A stretch of DNA of 64,000 nucleotides. Source: Escherichia coli 042. Lineage in GTDB: Bacteria; Pseudomonadota; Gammaproteobacteria; Enterobacterales; Enterobacteriaceae. The notes under the pieces were generated by a model, which made no database searches, was not told where the DNA came from, and saw only the letters and a list, made by a program, of their open reading frames with translations. Shown piece after piece: positions 3,641-38,956 of the stretch. The DNA lies in assembly GCF_000027125.1 (NCBI RefSeq), contig NC_017626.1; one strand, given 5' to 3'. A program made the position numbers and the translations under genes. Position 1 is the first letter of the stretch, and each line of letters begins with the position of its first letter.

Positions 3641-5835
3641 GTAGTGCCTACAATAGTCTTGATCCCCGTGTCCGTAAGTGGGTTTATAAGCAGGGCTGGT
3701 CATCCTTAAGGCCCTTGCAGGAAAGCTCTATTCCGGCAATTTTAGCCCGTGATCGTGATGTACTAATTAGTGCAGGTACAGCTGCGGGTAAAACAGAGGC
3801 TTTCTTTCTTCCTGCCTGTTCAGCGATTGCAGATCTCACTGGTGGATTTGGCATTATCTATATCAGTCCATTGAAGGCATTAATTAACGATCAACACCGT
3901 CGTCTTGAGAGTCTTGGTGAAGCCCTGGAAATGCAAGTGACGCCCTGGCACGGGGATGTACCACAAAGCAAAAAGAAGAAAGCACGGACAACCCCTTCTG
4001 GCATCTTACTTATCACACCTGAATCACTTGAGTCTTTGCTCATAAACTCATTGGGTTGGCTCAAACAGGCGTTTTCTTCTGTGGCATACATTGTTATTGA
4101 TGAGTTCCATGCTTTTATTGGCTCAGAGCGTGGTATACAGCTGCTTTCTCTGCTTAACAGAATTGACCATGTGCTGGGACGCCAGTTGAATCCAGTTCCC
4201 CGTGTCGCGTTGAGTGCCACACTGGGAGAGCTGGAAAAAGTACCAGAACTATTGCGCCCGGATAAGAGATTACCTTGTGAAACGGTAACAGACAGTAATA
4301 GCAAAGCCACAATACAGGTTCAGGTTAAAGGTTATCTTGAGCGGGTGCCCGAAAAAGGAAAAGAGCTCCAGAGCTCTGCTGAACAGCTCGTCTGCGCGGA
4401 TATTTTCAGGCTCTGCCGTGGCGATTCCCACCTAGTCTTTGCTAACAGTCGAAAGCGTACTGAAAGCATAGCGGCAACACTGAGCGACATGTGTGAAGCA
4501 AATGTCGTTCCTAATGAATTCTTTCCTCATCATGGTTCCCTTGCAAGGGAGTTGCGTGAGGCGCTTGAAGCCCGACTGCAGAAAGGGAATTTGCCCACAA
4601 CCGCTGTTTGTACAATGACTCTGGAGCTGGGTATTGATATTGGTAAGGTGCAGTCTGTCATACAAGTGACACCTCCGCATTCTGTTTCCAGTCTGCGTCA
4701 ACGCATGGGACGTTCAGGGCGGCGCGATTCCCCATCGGTGCTGAGAATGTTAATTACTGAACCTGAACTTACCGCAACCAGCAGCATTGTGGATCATTTA
4801 CGGCTGCAGTTGGTTCAGGCGATGGCAATGATCAGGTTGATGATCTCTAAGCGCTGGTTCGAGCCTGCAGATATCCGGCAGAAACATTACTCCACACTAC
4901 TACACCAGATCTTGGCTATTACTGCGCAATGGGGAGGTGTTCGTGCCGATCAGCTCTGGTCACAACTTTGCCAGACAGGTCCGTTCCGGAATGTGGATAT
5001 AAATGACTTCAAAAGTCTGCTTAAACATATGGGGACATGTGGCCTGCTCACTCAACTAACCAGCGGTGAAATAGTTGTCGGGGCTGAGGGGGAGAAACTG
5101 ACTAATCACTACACGTTTTATACCGTATTCAATACACCTGAGGAGTTTCGCATTGTAACGGGAAACCGAACTCTTGGCACAGTGCCTGTAGACTCCCCAC
5201 TTTTGCCGGAGCAGCACATCATCTTCGGCGGACGGCGCTGGAAAGTGACAGAGATCGAGGTTGAAAAAAAGGTTATCTATGTTGAGACGACTAAAGGCGG
5301 TCAGCCGCCACTATTCAGTGGTAGCGGGATGTCTGTTCATGATGTTGTTCGCCAGGAAATGCTCACTATCTACAGGGAAAATGATTACCGTATCGCGGTA
5401 GGCAACAAGAGAGTCGATTATGCTGATGCCGCAGCCAGAAGCCTCTTCGCGGAAGGAAGTGACAACTTCCAACGCTACAATCTACAAAATGACTGTTTTA
5501 TTGCCAGTGGTCAGAACTGCTACGTGATCCCGTGGATGGGGGATAAAATTGTCAATACAATTACGTCCCTGCTTATACGTTGTGGCTTTAAAGCCAGTTC
5601 ATTTGCAGGTGTGATAGAGGTAGAGGACTCAGGCGTTGCCTCTGTCCAGCGTGCACTTAAGAAAATGCTATTGTCGGGGCTACCTTCAGAGTTTGAGCTT
5701 GCTGCAGTTGTTCCCGACAAGTATCTGGATAAATATGACGAGTATTTACCAGAGACTTTGCTTGCTAAAGGGTATGGGGCACAGGCGTATGATATAGAAG
5801 GAACGTGCATCTGGCTGCAGAAACACCTTCAGTAG
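3637..5835 (+). CDS. DExH-box superfamily 2 helicase with ~300-aa C-terminal extension; candidate SngC-like helicase
   Basis: 732-aa ORF with Q-motif/motif I (SAGTAAGKTEAF), motif II (VIDEFHAF), motif III (LSATLG) and helicase-C motif (QRMGRSGR). Confidence 0.7.
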   Translation: MSSAYNSLDPRVRKWVYKQGWSSLRPLQESSIPAILARDRDVLISAGTAAGKTEAFFLPACSAIADLTGGFGIIYISPLKALINDQHRRLESLGEALEMQVTPWHGDVPQSKKKKARTTPSGILLITPESLESLLINSLGWLKQAFSSVAYIVIDEFHAFIGSERGIQLLSLLNRIDHVLGRQLNPVPRVALSATLGELEKVPELLRPDKRLPCETVTDSNSKATIQVQVKGYLERVPEKGKELQSSAEQLVCADIFRLCRGDSHLVFANSRKRTESIAATLSDMCEANVVPNEFFPHHGSLARELREALEARLQKGNLPTTAVCTMTLELGIDIGKVQSVIQVTPPHSVSSLRQRMGRSGRRDSPSVLRMLITEPELTATSSIVDHLRLQLVQAMAMIRLMISKRWFEPADIRQKHYSTLLHQILAITAQWGGVRADQLWSQLCQTGPFRNVDINDFKSLLKHMGTCGLLTQLTSGEIVVGAEGEKLTNHYTFYTVFNTPEEFRIVTGNRTLGTVPVDSPLLPEQHIIFGGRRWKVTEIEVEKKVIYVETTKGGQPPLFSGSGMSVHDVVRQEMLTIYRENDYRIAVGNKRVDYADAAARSLFAEGSDNFQRYNLQNDCFIASGQNCYVIPWMGDKIVNTITSLLIRCGFKASSFAGVIEVEDSGVASVQRALKKMLLSGLPSEFELAAVVPDKYLDKYDEYLPETLLAKGYGAQAYDIEGTCIWLQKHLQ

Positions 5836-9279: not shown

Positions 9280-9987
9280 TCAATAAAGAATCTTTATTGA
9301 TGATACTGGCACTGTAACAATCCCATTGAGAGAACGATTTATAACCACCCACTCATGTGGTTCAACCAACCAGGAGTTTACATGTTTTGAATCAATAAAA
9401 TCATGGCAATATAATATATCTGAAGCAGGTATATCCAACTCCAGTTTAACACGTCCGTGATATTCATCCGCATCATTAAAAGAATTCAATATATCCATCT
9501 CAAAAGAAATCACATCCTCCCCTCTTATCTCTGCTGTTTCTTTTAACTCAGCAATCGTATCTGCATACCTGCCATTAAGTTTCCTGCCTAACTGGATAGT
9601 TGTGATTTTCTTTTCGTTGCAGCATCGCTGAGTATGTTCATATATAGCCATCACTTCCTGGCAAATACAATCAACTTCTATATCACTCAAAGAATTATAT
9701 ATGTCCATAACTTTTCTCTCATAATGCAAAAAAAGATTAAATATACGATAATGAGAGAGCAAATCAGAATTTGTTACTTTCGTTAAGAATAAAGTTAATA
9801 AAACATAACCTACCTGTTTACTACCATTAAACCCAATAAAATCACTTCTCACATCTCCTTTCAATCTACCAGTTCCGATACAACGAGCTAACAATTCACT
9901 CCTGACATTATATTTACCATTCATATTCACCATACTATTCGAAACAACAGACGAACATCCAAAAGCGCTTAAACACTCCACAAACAA
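9280..9987 (-). CDS. Hypothetical protein (AT-rich gene upstream of ibrA)
   Basis: 235-aa ORF, markedly lower GC than ibrA; no recognisable motifs. Confidence 0.4.
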   Translation of the reverse strand: MFVECLSAFGCSSVVSNSMVNMNGKYNVRSELLARCIGTGRLKGDVRSDFIGFNGSKQVGYVLLTLFLTKVTNSDLLSHYRIFNLFLHYERKVMDIYNSLSDIEVDCICQEVMAIYEHTQRCCNEKKITTIQLGRKLNGRYADTIAELKETAEIRGEDVISFEMDILNSFNDADEYHGRVKLELDIPASDILYCHDFIDSKHVNSWLVEPHEWVVINRSLNGIVTVPVSSIKILY

Positions 9988-16108: not shown

Positions 16109-16657
16109 TCACTGAGCTGTAATCAATGTACAGCGCTGTACCGGACGATGGGTAATGGCGGTCACAACCGGTAACCCCAGAGACAATGCGACTGTTTTTA
16201 ACGCAACATACTGACCGGATGTATCACCCCGGGCAACCCGAAAACACCTTTCCACCCGGCATTGTCCGCCAGCACTTATCACCTGCCAGCTATGTTGCAG
16301 TAAATCCACCACTTGCGAACATTGTTCATCAACTGTGACACTGGCTCGCGGGTGACAAATACTCGTCTGGCTGAGCAGCAACAGGCATCGAATTGTTGCT
16401 CCTTCATGTTGTTCCCGCAACCAGCGTAATACCACCGGAGAGGATGGACTGGCAGTGTGATTACGCTCAGTAATACGTTCATGCAGTTGTCGATAAAAGG
16501 AAGTACAGAATGCCTGAATCTGTTGCCCGTTGATGTTTCCTTCAGCCGAATGGAGCGTGAAGTGGACTGCCAGCAGACGCGGCCAGTGGTCCACCGCCTG
16601 CTGAACAAAACGCCGGATGTCTCCCGGCTCTGAAATTAAGGCTTCGGTTATTTGCAC
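16109..16657 (-). CDS. YagK/YfjJ-family (inovirus Gp2-like) protein
   Basis: 182-aa ORF with GTG start lying inside the left island repeat; core (VVLRWLREQHEGATIRCLLLLSQ) parallels the other YfjJ-like ORFs in the window. Confidence 0.45.
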   Translation of the reverse strand: MQITEALISEPGDIRRFVQQAVDHWPRLLAVHFTLHSAEGNINGQQIQAFCTSFYRQLHERITERNHTASPSSPVVLRWLREQHEGATIRCLLLLSQTSICHPRASVTVDEQCSQVVDLLQHSWQVISAGGQCRVERCFRVARGDTSGQYVALKTVALSLGLPVVTAITHRPVQRCTLITAQ

Positions 16658-29705: not shown

Positions 29706-29942
29706 TCATGCTGCTGCTCCTCGTGATTCCTCAATTCGCTGCTGCATCCACTGCTCCACTTCACTTTTGTACCAGCGGCTGCTGCGGCCCAGCTTGATGG
29801 GTTTCGGGAAATGGCCTTCACTGATCAGCTTGTAAAACCATTTATCTGTCATACCGGTGAAACTGGTGATGTAGTTCATGTCGATCAGGGGATCGTCGGC
29901 ACGCAGCAACACGCAGTCGTGGCCTGTCATTGAGGTCAACAT
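29706..29942 (-). CDS. alpA: AlpA-family prophage regulatory / excisionase-like protein
   Basis: 78-aa ORF; C-terminal region (GHFPKPIKLGRSSRWYKSEVEQW) matches the AlpA family pattern. Confidence 0.7.
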   Translation of the reverse strand: MLTSMTGHDCVLLRADDPLIDMNYITSFTGMTDKWFYKLISEGHFPKPIKLGRSSRWYKSEVEQWMQQRIEESRGAAA

Positions 29943-30832: not shown

Positions 30833-31399
30833 TCAGAAGTGAGGCTTACGAGGACGCCCTGCAGCAGGACGTTCAGGAACTTCATTGCAGCCGTAGGCAC
30901 ACAGCCCGTCTTTTTGTTCTTCTTTCGCCAGATAATGCAGGGCACCGCGAATATTATCGATGCTTTCAGGATCGTTGTGGCGCACAGGAATGTTGATGTT
31001 GTATGCATAATGCGGCTGATATGTACAGCGGTGCGCCGAACCACAGTTATACGTAATTGCCTGCCAGCATTCCGCTATCCGCTCCGCAAAGGGATATATT
31101 TTTTTAACCCTCTGACGATCGATCCAGAAAACGACATGCGCATGAAAACCATGATCAGCCGTCCATTCAATCACCCAGAAGAAACCAACGATATTTTCAA
31201 ATTGTTCCACCTGCTCCAGCAGCATACGCAACTGCAATTCAAGCCAGCGATGATCAGGTTGTAAGAAATCAGGCGTATCTTTCCTGTAGAAGAAATCCAT
31301 GCGTAAGGCCCGCAGGCAGGAATAGCGTGCCATCATTTGATTGATGTGATTGTCAAGTAAAGCGGTAAAAAACCAGTTTGGTGTGTAAGATTTAGGCAT
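30833..31399 (-). CDS. YagK/YfjJ-family (inovirus Gp2-like) protein
   Basis: 188-aa ORF (HAHVVFWIDRQR core) in tandem with the previous paralog. Confidence 0.55.
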   Translation of the reverse strand: MPKSYTPNWFFTALLDNHINQMMARYSCLRALRMDFFYRKDTPDFLQPDHRWLELQLRMLLEQVEQFENIVGFFWVIEWTADHGFHAHVVFWIDRQRVKKIYPFAERIAECWQAITYNCGSAHRCTYQPHYAYNINIPVRHNDPESIDNIRGALHYLAKEEQKDGLCAYGCNEVPERPAAGRPRKPHF

Positions 31400-32826
31400 G
31401 TTGATGACTCCTGAAAGTTAATGATGTTTTAAGCTCTGTGAACGAATTAATGCTTTCGCTCATAATCAGATCTAAAACGGTAATAACTTACAGATGGTAT
31501 TTATCAGGCATGCTGTAGCAGAATGGATACGACGGGTTATTAACGATACGCAGCATTATGCAGAAAGAAATGGATTATCTGATGGTATTAGCTAAAGAGA
31601 TGAGATAAACGAGGAGTAAAGAAAATACAGACTCAATAAAACATCACGAAATACTGCAAAATACGCGATAAAACACCACGACCAGAAGGTTAAGAAACAT
31701 ATTGCGACCAATCATAAACTACAAACTTGCTCTCAGTGGTTGTAAAAACCGTGTACAAGGCCAATGCAATAAACTTATATGCGCTCATTCAATCTGTTCT
31801 TAAGGACATGAACATTCACGGCTCACGATAGCAGAATAAAAAATACCACTGACATGATTTTCATCCTGCATCTTAGATAATACAACCCAGAACAAACATA
31901 ATCAGGAATCTCTCCTGTCAATTCCATTGTTTATCCAGCTCTGTTAATCGTTACAGAATCATGGATACCTTATCAAAAAGTAAACATTCGGTTAATCAGT
32001 AATGACAAAAGAATTGATGTTCATCAGAATAGTTAAAACACTTCAGATAAACAATTATCGTTAAGTAAATACAGTTCATGATGGATAAGATTAAAATCAA
32101 TTACTGTTTCAGTGAAGACTGATAACAGATGAATATCATCAGTAGAATGGTAGAGGATAACTTATCTGAGTATCGTATGAATTACAGTAGTTATGCCTAA
32201 TGAAGAAGGAAGTGGATATTATGATAATGGTGACAATGAAGATTAGACAAAGAAGAGTGTGAGTAAAGACAGAGTGAATATAATTATAGTAATAAACCTA
32301 AATTAAAATTATCCATGTTTGATGTAAAATAATAATATACTGACAACCATGAAGATAAGAAAAAGAGAGTGCAGGTATCAGGAAGATCTCAGGATATGAA
32401 GATTCCCACAACACAGATTTAAAATCAGTCGAATATAATAAATTTAAAAACCTTAATTAAAATGTAATCTCATCCATGGTTAACATGCTCCTGAAAAGAA
32501 AATTTACAAATACCGTATGCTACCAACTAATTACAACAATGATATATGTACATTCAATAAGAATACAGATAAAATATTAATACCAACTTCCAGTATCAAG
32601 ATCGTATCGCGAACTTCAGATGCGCTATGAGGCAGTTCAATTTTTAACTTTCGTTTTCCTCTTCCTCCCTGGCTTCATATGCATAAGCGACTTGAAAGAC
32701 CCGATGATAGTTACAATTTCAGGTTGTGGCATGACGATCAATTTGTAACTGAAACAATGAACGGTAACGCTGCCATATAAACATCAAAATGCGAGCATTA
32801 CAGCGACATTGAACCGATTAGATGTA

Positions 32827-33573
32827 TCACTCATAATCAGAACAAGATGATGTATCCTGAGATATAAGAAAATCATCAAGAGAACCTCCGGCTTTTATTG
32901 CTTCTGCAATAACATTAGGCCGACGACCTTGTCCACTCCAGTACATTGTTTGACCGTTATACTCATACCTGTATTTATTAGACTCTCCTGAATCGTTTTT
33001 CCTGCCCGTCTGTAATTTTTTGCCAAATTCACGTTCGTCGATCATGGTAATGATATAGCGACGCATTTCACCCATTCTGAGCTCAATGGCGTCCATCCCA
33101 ATGAGCTCACCGGTCTTTACCGGACGGTAGTGCTTTGGCCGGCGGGGTTTGGCGGTTCGCTTTTTGACAAGCAGAGCCTTACCCCGCGAGCTCAGACGTA
33201 CTGGTATCATCCGCATTTTATCGTGTGCGGTGGCGATCATTCTGCCGATGGTGGAAACACTCGGGCAGGTCAGATGGCGCTGTGCGCACCAGGGCTTCAG
33301 GCGAACAAAAATCTGCTCTTTACCGAGGTTTGGCAGCTCTGTCCTGAGGCGTCGAATCTCTTTCAGCACATCGGGATGCCAGTGCTTTTTTCGTCGCACC
33401 AGAGGTGCCTTACTGTGCGGGATTAGCCCCTCAGGTCCTCCCTTGTTCAGTAACTGACGCCACCAGTAAAGCGTGCGGCAGGACACGCCAAAGGCTTCAG
33501 AAGCCGCAGAAATACCGTGTTTATCCCAGAAGTGCAGAGCCTTCATTCTCATTGTTGCTATATCAGCTGTCAC
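32827..33573 (-). pseudogene. Truncated IS481-family transposase-like gene (HTH plus start of DDE domain, then unrelated tail)
   Basis: N-terminus (LHFWDKHGISAASEAFGVSCRTLYWW) and GELIGMDAIELRMGEMRRYIITMID resemble IS481-family transposase up to the start of the catalytic core. Confidence 0.4.
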
Positions 33574-37555: not shown

Positions 37556-38287
37556 TCACCTGCCATCCAGTAGACGCCCCGGCCCACGACTGCAACCATA
37601 ATTACGTTGCCCGGAACCGTTATGCAGCTTCGTTTCATATTTCACGAGATAACTGGCTCTGTTCCGGGCTTTCTGCAGCGCTTCCACATCACCACGCTTG
37701 ATCCAGAGAACAGCGGCTTCACCCGGCTTTTTGTCTGAAGCCTTCCTGGTATCAGAACATCCACCCGACAAAGGCGTGTCATCGGAAGAAGGGCGAGCAT
37801 CAGACGATGCTGGTTTACGGGAAGGCGTCCACCTGGAAAAATGGACCTGGCCATCGCCTTGCCAGGGCTCAAGATGCAGGGCGCTGCACCATGCCTCTAG
37901 GATCATCGTCGCCAGCGAAGATGGTTCGCTGAAATCCCCGAGCGAGCACCAGGTATCTTTGTTGAGCAGTAATATCACGTGATAATGTTTCCTGCCATAC
38001 ATCTTGCCGAACTCCCGGCACCAGAAATAACGCAGGCTGGTTGCATGCACACGCTGATTGGCACATCTTTTTTTCCGCTGGTAAGCCTGAATTTTGGCTT
38101 TCAGGGATGCAAAAAAACGAGAAATCACCGCTGAATCCGGATCGGGATCCATGATGGTGACAGGCATATACTCAGGAAACCGTAAATCCACCCGGATTAA
38201 CGAGACGGCACGGTGTTGCACCAGGGCACTGTTGAGAATACTTTCAAAACGGGATAACCAGTAATCATTGTGTATTGGTTGATTCAT
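37556..38287 (-). CDS. YagK/YfjJ-family (inovirus Gp2-like) protein
   Basis: 243-aa ORF (RVDLRFPEYMP ... HYHVILLLNKD); third paralog in the window. Confidence 0.6.
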   Translation of the reverse strand: MNQPIHNDYWLSRFESILNSALVQHRAVSLIRVDLRFPEYMPVTIMDPDPDSAVISRFFASLKAKIQAYQRKKRCANQRVHATSLRYFWCREFGKMYGRKHYHVILLLNKDTWCSLGDFSEPSSLATMILEAWCSALHLEPWQGDGQVHFSRWTPSRKPASSDARPSSDDTPLSGGCSDTRKASDKKPGEAAVLWIKRGDVEALQKARNRASYLVKYETKLHNGSGQRNYGCSRGPGRLLDGR

Positions 38288-38956
38288 GATGAGAGATCTC
38301 CGTTGATTTGGATTGACTTCACATCATTAATCGCCGCGGTAAAACTTTACGGCATCCCACCAATGAGCAACGCCAATAGCTCCTGATTAAAACGGAATGA
38401 ATCGTCCCGTAACGAAAAGATAATCCTGCACACGACAGCAAAACGTAAAACAACGGCATGAATGAGCTAAATGTCTAAAGAAAAACTGCCTTTTCACATT
38501 ATTTTTCAGCGAGTGATCATACCAGCATCCCTAACATACGAAATCGCATCGTGATCGATCGCTGATTCGCCGAACAACTGATCGAATACACCTGAATCTG
38601 CACTAACATCCTGATGGGTAACGGAAGACTAAAAAACCAGTGTTCTATTGATTGCACGGAATGCCTGTGCGCTGGCCTGACCAGTAAGCACAATTCTACG
38701 AGTAGTAAGATATCTACTCCAAAACCATGCGCAGTAGCCACCATATGTTGCCAGGGTGAAAAATAAGCTCAGAACTATAGGGGAGTAATTCCCGTTAATG
38801 TCATCGCCGTACCTCAATCAGCTCACAAACTGGCTGAAACGTTAAGCTGAGGCCTTTATTCTTCAGATGTATTTTCCGGTTTACCTGTAAATTATCTTCT
38901 GATATTTATCACATTAGTAATTGTGCTGATTATCTACATACTTCAAGGTCTGAAAT

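Follow-up and report, generated by a model that had tools for sequence, protein, structure and literature searches.

In E. coli, Rho and H-NS act as silencers of foreign DNA that is AT-rich and untranslated. The transposase mRNAs of IS10 and IS50 are subject to fold-back inhibition, with 5'UTR hairpins that sequester the ribosome-binding site. AlpA-dependent promoters of P. aeruginosa carry an AlpA binding element between the -35 and -10 positions and have terminators downstream (PMC7969949, PMC9371919). The residue numbering of this AlpA (R128-H142) indicates a protein of at least 142 residues, and it has an N-terminal RNAP-binding segment (PMC9371919). Gp2 proteins of the YagK/YfjJ family are uncharacterised, yet they belong to the backbone of islands whose cargo includes microcins, D-serine utilisation and defence systems. 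A literature search for YfjJ, YagK and Inovirus_Gp2 gave no functional study.

The locus described here is a 1.4-kb stretch directly upstream of a Gp2 gene, within 64 kb of E. coli 042 DNA (the window). The best reading is that this stretch is a non-coding spacer or control region, previously undescribed and ordinary; a hidden gene is not supported. We assign a probability of roughly 55% to the interpretation, drawn from comparison of sequences, that it consists of an upstream control region and a long untranslated leader (about 880 nt) that keep the Gp2-AlpA operon silent.

Non-coding DNA in a genomic island backbone

The region fills exactly the gap that separates the start codon of Gp2 (31399) from the stop codon (32827) of an ORF containing an H-NS fragment, and the minus strand of the window is the sense strand for the operon downstream. 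The operon encodes, in order, Gp2 (HUH Rep-like), a hypothetical protein of 191 aa, an excisionase-like AlpA and a hypothetical protein of 182 aa. The local AlpA has 78 aa, and its sequence matches in the PDB are only small AlpA, TorI and RdfS proteins, 8c3t among them. The flanking genes had been named YfjJ-like and IS481-like in the initial annotation, which is roughly right, except that the right flank is really a chimera of IS481-type HTH and H-NS C-terminal sequence; in the PGAP annotation it is two features, an H-NS family protein of 72 aa and an HTH pseudogene with a frameshift. The coordinates of all features are given in Table 1.

Table 1. Features of the intergenic region and its flanking genes (window positions)
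Feature	Coordinates	Strand	Remarks
Gp2 / YagK-YfjJ family protein, 188 aa	30833..31399	-	Flanking gene; HUH Rep-like fold
Whole intergenic region	31400..32826	-	Gp2 start codon to stop codon of the H-NS-fragment ORF
Predicted 5'UTR hairpin, about 117 nt	31396..31513	-	SD CAGGAG (31413-31408) and AUG (31399-31397) paired with upstream arm
Highly constrained proximal leader	31400..31528	-	Kept in every deletion variant
Leader body, near-neutral dispensable spacer	31529..32024	-	Divergence, gaps, deletions
Central segment, intermediate constraint	32025..32100	-	Divergence 0.071
Hypervariable pyrimidine-rich, C-rich, G-poor zone	32190..32280	-	Degenerate units (TTATATTCACTC...TCTTTAC); candidate rut tract
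Repeat unit 1 (first unit of the initial annotation)	32216..32320	.	Box and first part of the C-rich zone
Conserved box TTAATTTAGGTTTATTACTATAATTA	32281..32306	-	-10-like TATAAT 32288-32283; CACTC directly downstream
Shared distal end, about 30 nt upstream of box	32307..32336	-	End of the block common to all contexts
Repeat unit 2, degenerate tandem duplicate of unit 1	32329..32481	.	Second, decayed box (TTAATTAAGGTT...TATTAT)
3' flank of the island's H-NS-paralog gene	32624..32826	-	88% identity, see L018/L025
248-aa chimeric ORF	32827..33573	-	Flanking ORF; IS481-type HTH domains and H-NS C-terminal DNA-binding domain

No ORF of at least 60 codons overlaps 31400-32826 on either strand, the longest being 42 aa, and the GC content is 0.28-0.38 inside versus about 0.45-0.55 in the flanks. 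The description of the region as AT-rich and ORF-free is therefore correct. It had also been called unusual. At 1427 bp it is the longest stretch in the window free of such ORFs (the runner-up is 756 bp), but 24% of random sequences with the same dinucleotide make-up are equally ORF-free, against 3% of those with the average composition of the window. The absence of ORFs is thus largely due to the AT-richness of the region. A/T tracts occur at 17.5 per kb in the region and 13.8 per kb outside it. A 100% identical record, NZ_AP022298.1, has no annotation across 31400-32826.

The Gp2-proximal ~930 bp are found in 1566-1572 of 5426 complete E. coli genomes (about 29%), always joined to the operon encoding Gp2, the hypothetical protein and AlpA, and are never annotated. 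The stretch is non-coding DNA of the backbone in a family of E. coli genomic islands. The upstream neighbours of the block vary, and include an H-NS paralog, YfjI, dsdA, a sugar kinase, IS481 and IS3. The different context classes share just 27-32 nt (approximately) upstream of the box described below, an extent that is that of a promoter upstream region. Beyond this point, 32337-32623 is specific to the lineage of this window, and the 32624..32826 segment is 88% identical to sequence beside the longer H-NS paralog genes (116 and 146 aa) of L018 and L025. Two components make up the distal 490 bp (32337-32826), the 3' flank of an H-NS paralog and a tandem duplicate of the box unit that has decayed; in the ancestral arrangement the H-NS paralog gene lies directly upstream of the leader.

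This decayed duplicate is what the initial annotation saw as tandem repeat units. The two units are real; 87 of 100 aligned bases are identical in a gapped alignment (z-score 7.1; none of 2000 shuffles scores as high), and they include the direct repeats D1 (32216-32253 and 32329-32366, 74%) and D3 (32276-32307 and 32431-32462, 72%). Unit 2 carries about 50 nt of insertions relative to unit 1, and is restricted to the lineage with the H-NS fragment (the window, L003, L019 and L021). There are only two copies and no array of three or more head-to-tail copies; Tandem Repeats Finder reports none, and no k-mer or iteron in the region rises above simulation. DnaA-box-like TATCCAT is likewise not enriched.

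The conserved box and the proposed untranslated leader

The distal box, TTAATTTAGGTTtATTAcTATAATTA at 32306-32281 of the minus strand, is also found upstream of Gp2 genes in other genera. The match is unique in the 64-kb window, with 0 expected. All 16 E. coli-type homologs carry its core, TTAATTTAGGTT, with one substitution allowed for L002, and the box precedes roughly 50%-identical Gp2 genes in Mixta, Enterobacter, Citrobacter, Salmonella diarizonae, Klebsiella and Xenorhabdus. The leader in these other genera is only 120-250 nt long with the box retained, and the box is the sole significant similarity between those leaders and this one. A Gp2 gene lies downstream on the same strand in 84 of 120 metagenome loci that have the box, and most of the others are too short to judge. 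An ORF of 197-207 aa that precedes the box in distant loci has left no remnant here.

The pattern of conservation suggests that the box is the promoter core of the operon, with a -10 element (TATAAT/TATTAT) and a start near CACTC. The columns TA.TAT.ATTA and the AC of CACTC are invariant, and all 16 E. coli-type copies, along with 7 other lineages, have the A and T that mark positions 2 and 6 of a -10 hexamer. A 7-3-7 AT palindrome within the box is perfect in most lineages. Changes in its left arm go uncompensated, a pattern consistent with a -10 element and start site and one that argues against a hairpin. GC-rich repeats (a GC stem) flank the box in one lineage only. A -35 hexamer was not found at 16-18 bp spacing, where AATTTT or GAAAAT occurs, so a promoter at the box is probably activator-dependent or weak. 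A consensus promoter scan does not call the box a promoter, and found no other consensus promoter on the minus strand of 31400-32200. The conservation of a ~35-nt element at >85%, while the protein is about 50% identical, exceeds that of a usual plain promoter, and the box may also be a protein-binding or nick site. The exact box had no match in IMG/VR; a degenerate box pattern gave 120 chance AT-rich matches there, and Gp2 was never nearby.

The sequence after the box is strongly biased toward C. No other minus-strand segment of the 64-kb window exceeds the C/G ratio of 8.0 at 32280-32201, which ranks among the top 0.1% of all windows compared, and the 200 nt after the box contain 22-39% C and 4-10% G in all 16 homologs. 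The length of the C-rich zone varies from 102 to 258 nt among these homologs, and in one strain a unit (CCTTCTCCA) is repeated about 10 times. Across strains the zone behaves as a degenerate minisatellite of variable length, in which the spacing of the YTTTAC motif is irregular. About 80 nt here are untranslated and unstructured with C well above G, as in a Rho-utilisation (rut) site, given fold z-scores of at least 0 and no ORF. On this composition the C-rich tract is a candidate rut site.

Constraint differs sharply along the leader. The neighbouring genes diverge by 0.136 at 4-fold sites and by 0.029 at codon positions 1+2; the mean pairwise divergence of the proximal leader is 0.033. In the body it is 0.098 (31526-31600) and 0.156 (31601-32024), again versus 0.136 at 4-fold sites, and 31526-32199 has about 25 distinct gap runs and 287 variable columns of 725. 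The divergence of the central segment is about half the neutral rate (profile identity 0.93-0.98), and part of this segment is missing in one deletion variant. An inverted repeat that overlaps it, I1 (31987-32025 / 32089-32116), was rejected as a conserved hairpin, having six one-arm substitutions without compensation. Metagenomic variants lack 31529-31889 or 31839-32037. In natural deletion variants homology resumes at 31528, and the deletions strip segments of the body but never the box or 31380-31528. With a near-neutral body, the 1.4 kb may for the most part serve no purpose beyond spacing.

The proximal leader is predicted to form a hairpin that hides the ribosome-binding site, both SD and AUG. 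Its minimum free energy of -30.4 kcal/mol (z = -3.55) is equalled by 1 of 200 shuffled sequences. Substitutions in homologs fall at unpaired positions or keep the pairing (U-G to C-G), with a few breaks; there are no double compensatory changes, and one homolog has a 12-nt deletion in the hairpin. In Klebsiella L027 and Enterobacter L014, whose leaders are unrelated to this one, the SD is likewise predicted to be sequestered. The plus strand of 31400-31549 also folds well (z = -3.7).

The elements described above could act in series. The box would serve as the promoter core of the operon, with transcription starting near CACTC. The untranslated C-rich transcript would provide a loading site for Rho, such that most transcripts would terminate early, and the AT-rich DNA would be a likely target of H-NS. 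Those transcripts that get through would be poorly translated due to the hairpin. The combined layers would keep the replication/excision module silent. The suggestion of a regulatory or nucleoid-protein-bound region, made in the initial annotation, is the one favoured by the promoter-like box, the rut-like tract and the putative hairpin at the ribosome-binding site. The published H-NS high-affinity motif (TCGATAAATT-like) is unenriched, at 1.4 per kb inside versus 1.3 outside. The leader has no ops (RfaH)/JUMPStart element. A resemblance to a Fur box at about 32055 amounted to 9 of 19 positions by eye and was discarded, and a literature search showed no link of the sRNAs Esr41 (OI-43) and PapR to this locus.

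Alternative explanations

A decayed gene and an ncRNA locus had both been proposed for this stretch. That it is the remnant of a protein-coding gene is extremely unlikely. A length of about 1.4 kb and neutral-like evolution would suit an old pseudogene, but translations of all six frames matched no Pfam family and none of 5.8 billion database proteins, no reading frame is conserved among 16 homologs (whose longest ORFs, of 35-84 aa, lack conservation), and ORFs from related loci do not map to the region by tblastn. An intact gene at this position elsewhere, which the initial annotation proposed to seek by BLASTN, is annotated at none of about 1570 homologous places; these hold only IS elements and one 44-aa repeat-derived call. 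An unannotated ncRNA or small-protein gene is very unlikely. Such a gene could be a type I toxin-like hydrophobic ORF of 34 aa (32100-31996) or a ProQ/FinO-assisted antisense RNA to the Gp2 5'UTR, and the constraint on 32025-32100 and the 5'UTR, together with the plus-strand fold and the presence of a ProQ/FinO family gene beside the module in several strains, would be consistent with it. However, just 7 of the 16 homologs have an intact copy of the 34-aa ORF, which has no SD, other small ORFs are unconserved outside invariant sequence, and the ProQ/FinO gene, missing from the 64-kb window, is in many cases a pseudogene. The best Rfam 15 matches, obtained at permissive E-values, are eukaryotic or archaeal snoRNA models with 17-23 bits versus gathering scores of 35-75, and were judged spurious. 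Fold z-scores are near or above zero except in the 5'UTR, conservation is lacking for the terminator-like hairpins 31917-31903 and 31680-31664, and neither a conserved terminator nor a suitably placed plus-strand promoter was found.

It is unlikely that the region is mostly junk, that is, filler from past rearrangements that is AT-rich by mutation bias, with the promoter and ribosome-binding site within about 130 nt of the Gp2 start and the box a relic. The neutral-like substitutions and indels of the body, its natural deletions, the mosaic structure of the region through recombination, the tolerance of IS insertions in the distal part and the frequency of ORF-free sequences of this composition all agree with such an origin. 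Against it, the box is present in every copy, including those of other genera with 120-250 nt leaders, and is spared by all deletion variants, the extreme C>G bias after the box persists despite sequence turnover, and the proximal 800 nt have no consensus promoter on the sense strand. The main rival reading, a rolling-circle origin or oriT of the island in which the box (perhaps with the 5'UTR inverted repeat) would be a cis site bound and nicked by the HUH Rep-like Gp2, is quite unlikely; promoter and origin functions could overlap. The adjacent gene encodes a protein with invariant HUH and YxxK motifs, some homologs of which are named 'rolling circle replication-associated protein' by NCBI, and the box is far more conserved than its surroundings and strictly linked to Gp2 across genera. 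In most lineages it contains a perfect palindrome, and in one it has GC-rich flanks. The zone 3' of the box also repeatedly duplicates units that begin with box sequence, which could stem from aberrant initiation and termination at a nick site. However, the palindrome and GC stem are unconserved, only the right arm with its -10-like hexamer being invariant, and iterons and enriched k-mers are absent. This copy of the module lacks the YfjI/DUF3987 neighbour of other copies and any helicase or other replication gene, and a literature search found no nicking activity for the YagK/YfjJ family. The module is also missing from the phage and viral collections searched; the phage collection gave no DNA match, and its only protein matches were two distant DUF3296 proteins in Acinetobacter phage records. 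A more specific version of this idea makes the box, TTAATTnnGGTTnnTTAaTATAATTAa..CACTCC, the cognate target that HUH Rep-like proteins of the YagK/YfjJ ('Gp2') family bind or nick, perhaps jointly with the invariant inverted repeat of the 5'UTR; it is likewise quite unlikely. If it were true, the widespread 'cryptic' Gp2-AlpA modules would be rolling-circle replication or mobilisation cassettes, and the hypervariable repeat zone would be a scar of aberrant initiation and termination.

Significance and comparison with known systems

The large unannotated gap before Gp2 does not contain a missed gene, and its dispensable filler can be told apart from three short constrained elements, the 26-nt box, the ~80-nt C-rich tract and the 117-nt hairpin. 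The box is a cis element strictly linked to Gp2 genes across genera. These three elements are small targets for learning how island modules stay silent, and whether a Rep-like protein acts on the DNA there. Should it prove to be no more than a silencing leader, the region would be a further example of a known principle and of local interest.

The island is of the same type as CP4-57 of E. coli K-12 (intA-alpA-yfjI-yfjJ), with AlpA, YfjI/DUF3987 (in some copies) and a YfjJ-type Gp2. However, the yfjI-yfjJ gap of K-12 is only 153 bp and has no exact box, and the gene order is different. As at P. aeruginosa AlpA promoters, the interval from the expected -35 to the -10 holds a conserved element (TTAATTnnGGTT), a leader follows, and the operon encodes an AlpA-domain protein. 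Unlike in that system, the intrinsic terminators of the leader are weak and unconserved, and the local AlpA is of the excisionase/RDF type, with P. aeruginosa AlpA not among its PDB matches. An analogy to AlpA-mediated antitermination was downgraded because the local protein is small and excisionase-like, at 78 aa versus the 140 aa or more (approximately) expected.

The gene II intergenic region of the Ff phages (M13/f1/fd) and the intergenic regions of Rep-encoding ssDNA replicons, which combine origin and promoter, resemble this locus in being long non-coding regions directly upstream of a Gp2/HUH initiator-like gene, and in having an AT-rich conserved box of palindromic type and a long hairpin beside the gene. 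They differ in that this locus has no sequence similarity to them, no phage genes and no place in phage collections; its palindrome is unconserved, iterons are lacking and most of the region is neutral. The likeness to IS10 and IS50 is in the 5'UTR, where an upstream arm is predicted to pair with the SD and start codon of a mobile-element gene, which would lead to poor translation of long read-through transcripts. Unlike in IS10 and IS50, no nearby internal promoter for a hairpin-free transcript was found, and the support for the hairpin is thermodynamic only.

Compared to leaders silenced by Rho and H-NS, this leader is unenriched in the H-NS high-affinity motif and has no ops/JUMPStart element. 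Like them, it has several hundred nt of AT-rich untranslated DNA separating the first gene from a promoter-like site, with an unstructured tract rich in C and poor in G toward the 5' end, and it lies in an island that ancestrally had its own H-NS paralog.

Extent, composition and flanks of the gap

The gap, the intergenic stretch upstream of the Gp2 gene, contains no ORF of at least 60 codons, as the initial annotation had claimed; the longest encodes 42 aa. At 1427 bp the gap exceeds every other such stretch of the 64-kb window (runner-up, 756 bp). Its reported AT-richness is also borne out, with a GC content of 0.28-0.38 vs roughly 0.45-0.55 in the surroundings. After correction for this AT-richness the lack of ORFs is just mildly unexpected: an ORF of at least 60 codons is missing from 24% of random sequences that share the dinucleotide make-up of the gap, compared to 3% at window-average composition. 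The longest ORF across 16 homologous copies ranges from 35 to 84 aa and is not conserved.

Features of the gap and its flanks; divergence is the mean pairwise value from an alignment of 16 homologs
Feature	Position	Strand	Divergence	Description
188-aa gene (Gp2)	30833-31399	minus		left flank; annotated 'inovirus-type Gp2 / YagK-YfjJ domain protein'
Gap	31400-32826			between start codon of minus-strand 188-aa gene and stop codon of minus-strand 248-aa ORF
Predicted 5'UTR hairpin	31513-31396	minus		long, imperfect; upstream arm pairs with CAGGAG (31413-31408) and AUG
Proximal 126 nt	31400-31525		0.033	
Leader body	31601-32024		0.156	
Central segment	32025-32100		0.071	
Post-box zone	about 32280-32190	minus		varies more than any other part, in both sequence and length
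Box	32306-32281	minus		TTAATTTAGGTTTATTACTATAATTA; single occurrence in window
Lineage-specific segment	32337-32623			confined to truncated-H-NS-gene lineage; contains unit 2
Distal segment	32624-32826			88% identical to sequence that other strains have 3' of longer H-NS paralog genes (116 and 146 aa)
Right-flank ORF	32827-33573	minus		continuous 248 aa; IS481-type HTH / H-NS chimera
Codon positions 1+2, three downstream genes			0.029	
4-fold sites, three downstream genes			0.136	

E. coli BEC1-S17-ESBL-09 matches the window at 100% identity; its copy of the gap is unannotated and lies in a microcin H47 island adjoining cadC. The minus-strand order is H-NS fragment, gap, Gp2 (188 aa), a hypothetical protein of 191 aa, AlpA (78 aa) and the microcin cluster; in other strains AlpA is followed by a 182-aa hypothetical protein in place of the microcin cluster. 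The microcin H47/M cluster separates alpA from the 182-aa 'UCP030791 family' gene (window ~16109-16657 and 29706-29942); in other strains this gene is directly 3' of alpA, and the cluster is thus cargo inserted within the backbone module. The 8-nt ops core GGCGGTAG has exact matches at window 24303, 14147 and 58155 (minus strand), two of them within the microcin cluster.

The right flank had been described as a truncated IS481-like gene. IS481-type HTH domains are indeed present (residues 8-112), but the ORF is a chimera that also holds an H-NS C-terminal DNA-binding domain (residues 200-237). In the PGAP annotation the ORF appears as two pieces, a 72-aa 'H-NS histone family protein' and a frameshifted HTH pseudogene, and other strains have H-NS paralogs of 116 and 146 aa at this position.

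On the other side of the gap, H86, H88, Y156 and K159 of the 188-aa protein are invariant in 31 homologs and correspond to HUH and YxxK motifs. Pfam REP_ORF2-G2P scores just under cut-off for this protein and over cut-off for a 243-aa paralog (37556-38287), and NCBI labels some homologs 'rolling circle replication-associated protein'. The YfjJ-type 243-aa paralog is divergently transcribed from a 176-aa ORF; its 669-bp upstream intergenic region (38288-38956) is not AT-rich and lacks the box. The local AlpA is a small excisionase/RDF-like protein that matches 8c3t, TorI and RdfS. It differs from the antiterminator AlpA of P. aeruginosa, a larger protein with a binding element between -35 and -10 (PMC7969949, PMC9371919).

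The box and the block that it bounds

The core of the box is kept in 16/16 homologs, one of which has a single substitution. The box also occurs 120-250 nt upstream of Gp2 genes with just ~50-59% protein identity, in Mixta, Enterobacter (two paralogs), Citrobacter, Salmonella diarizonae, Klebsiella, another E. coli lineage and Xenorhabdus, where it is interrupted by an IS. It is the sole significant similarity between these distant upstream regions and the gap. A metagenome scan for the box yielded 120 loci, and in 84 of these a Gp2 gene lies downstream on the same strand, after a leader of 355-1032 nt (median 943) in 58 loci of the 188-aa type and of 120-129 nt in 26 loci of the 190-aa type. 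The others comprise three chance matches, two rearranged loci and a remainder too short to judge. In other lineages, defence-like genes lie immediately downstream of box-plus-Gp2 (Klebsiella, L027 3924-6493; E. coli, L029 3598-6576; Xenorhabdus, L028 3860-6516), encoding an OLD-like TOPRIM/AAA ATPase with UvrD-like helicase, dynamin-like GTPases and DUF6361. Cargo may be inserted at a spot marked by the Gp2 gene.

The invariant columns of the box are TA.TAT.ATTA and the AC of the CACTC that follows. Most lineages have a 7-3-7 palindrome whose left arm varies without compensation. Given this variation and the invariant columns, TATAAT or TATTAT as a putative -10 hexamer, with a start ~7-9 nt downstream, fits the box better than a hairpin. 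The box has no -35 element and a consensus promoter scan does not call the site; the conserved TTAATTnnGGTT occupies the position expected of an activator or operator site.

Of 5426 complete E. coli genomes, 1566-1572 carry the Gp2-proximal ~930 bp (31400 to about 32330) at 80-100% identity, in up to five copies per genome; a few plasmids carry it as well. The full 1.4 kb is present in only 142 genomes. In all copies examined the block is joined to the same Gp2-hyp-AlpA genes, and its upstream neighbours vary (full or truncated H-NS paralog, YfjI (DUF3987), dsdA, sugar kinase, IS481 and IS3). The classes of upstream sequence have just ~27-32 nt in common beyond the box, which places the end of the common block near 32336. 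In several strains a ProQ/FinO-family gene on the opposite strand, usually frameshifted and absent from the window, adjoins the module (L003 2288-2497, L004 1927-2435, L019 1-486).

Beyond this end, the distal segment is the 3' flank of an H-NS paralog gene, as its likeness to sequence downstream of such genes indicates. The two related units noticed initially are real: 32216-32320 (unit 1) and 32329-32481 (unit 2) are identical at 87/100 paired positions, and unit 2 carries ~50 nt of insertions (z-score 7.1; 0/2000 shuffles reach that score). The unit occurs only twice, and Tandem Repeats Finder returns no array. Unit 2 repeats the box and the first portion of the C-rich zone in tandem and in decayed form; it has TTAATTAAGGTT and TATTAT. 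The promoter-like end of the block has therefore been duplicated, and other strains show different duplications at that spot.

Evolution and RNA features of the putative leader

The leader body diverges about as much as 4-fold sites of the downstream genes and thus evolves at about the neutral rate. Across 31526-32199 there are ~25 distinct gap runs and 287/725 variable columns, and the leader region is also a recombination mosaic. Natural deletion variants among the 120 metagenome loci lack 31529-31889, 31839-32037 or part of the post-box zone; all retain the box and 31380-31528. The 75-bp central segment evolves at half the neutral rate within an otherwise neutral leader, and no ORF, structure or motif accounts for it.

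The post-box zone is 102-258 nt long among 16 strains and made of degenerate pyrimidine-rich units. On the sense strand, the 200 nt after the box contain 22-39% C and 4-10% G in 16/16 homologs. The C/G ratio at 32280-32201 (8.0) is unsurpassed on the window's minus strand and ranks within the top 0.1% overall; the most extreme ratio of the window is 11.5, at 9791-9880 (plus strand). That a strand-specific composition is retained while the sequence turns over points to a role at the level of RNA (or of the single strand). Rho loads on untranslated, unstructured RNA that is C-rich and G-poor. In L017 (NZ_CP165737.1), the locus 3830-3964, homologous to window ~32215, carries the 9-nt CCTTCTCCA (sense strand) ~10 times, on which PGAP calls a 44-aa hypothetical protein.

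The hairpin predicted beside the Gp2 start has an MFE of -30.4 kcal/mol (z = -3.55; 1/200 shuffles fold equally well). The homologs vary too little for covariation; changes fall in loops or preserve pairing, a few break pairs, and a 12-nt deletion occurs in one homolog. Local SD-sequestering hairpins are also predicted in the Klebsiella and Enterobacter copies, whose leaders are unrelated.

A probable control region and its alternatives

The observed conservation, linkage and composition and the predicted folding suggest, with a probability of roughly 0.55, that the gap serves a Rep-like/excisionase operon as control region and long untranslated leader. We infer several layers that would jointly keep the module silent: a promoter at the box that is weak or needs an activator, early termination by Rho on the C-rich tract, probably H-NS coating of the AT-rich DNA, and masking of the RBS by fold-back. 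Most of the leader length would be dispensable filler. The pure-filler reading is rather unlikely; the near-neutral body and natural deletions would suit it, but the box persists in every deletion variant. The main rival, that the HUH protein nicks or binds the box, perhaps with a promoter overlapping it as in other Rep-encoding replicons, is unlikely. It would suit the constant linkage of box and Gp2 gene, but a rolling-circle origin would be expected to have a conserved hairpin and iterons; the palindrome present in most lineages has a left arm that changes uncompensated, and no k-mer is enriched above simulation, which argues against an iteron array.

A hidden RNA or small protein is very unlikely. 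Among small ORFs sought across homologs, the only one to keep its frame has 20 codons and sits in near-invariant sequence without an SD. The ncRNA locus proposed initially gained nothing from Rfam, which yields only spurious snoRNA matches far below threshold; sliding-window folding of both strands finds excess structure only beside the Gp2 start, and two sense-strand terminator-like hairpins are not conserved. Least probable is the decayed gene also proposed. Six-frame translations have no match in Pfam or a 5.8-billion-protein database, no remnants of ORFs of related loci were found in the gap, and the NCBI pipeline annotates no gene at homologous places except IS insertions and one 44-aa simple-repeat call. 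A phage collection also has no match to the gap.

The region is real and well delimited, and neither the putative leader nor the box is described in the literature searched. Its importance would be greater only if the box is a Rep target. As a control region, the gap resembles the Rho/H-NS-silenced leaders of foreign operons and the RBS fold-back control of mobile elements, and its layout recalls the non-coding region before gene II of Ff phages. K-12 CP4-57 has the same gene families, but its yfjI-yfjJ gap is just 153 bp and lacks the exact box.
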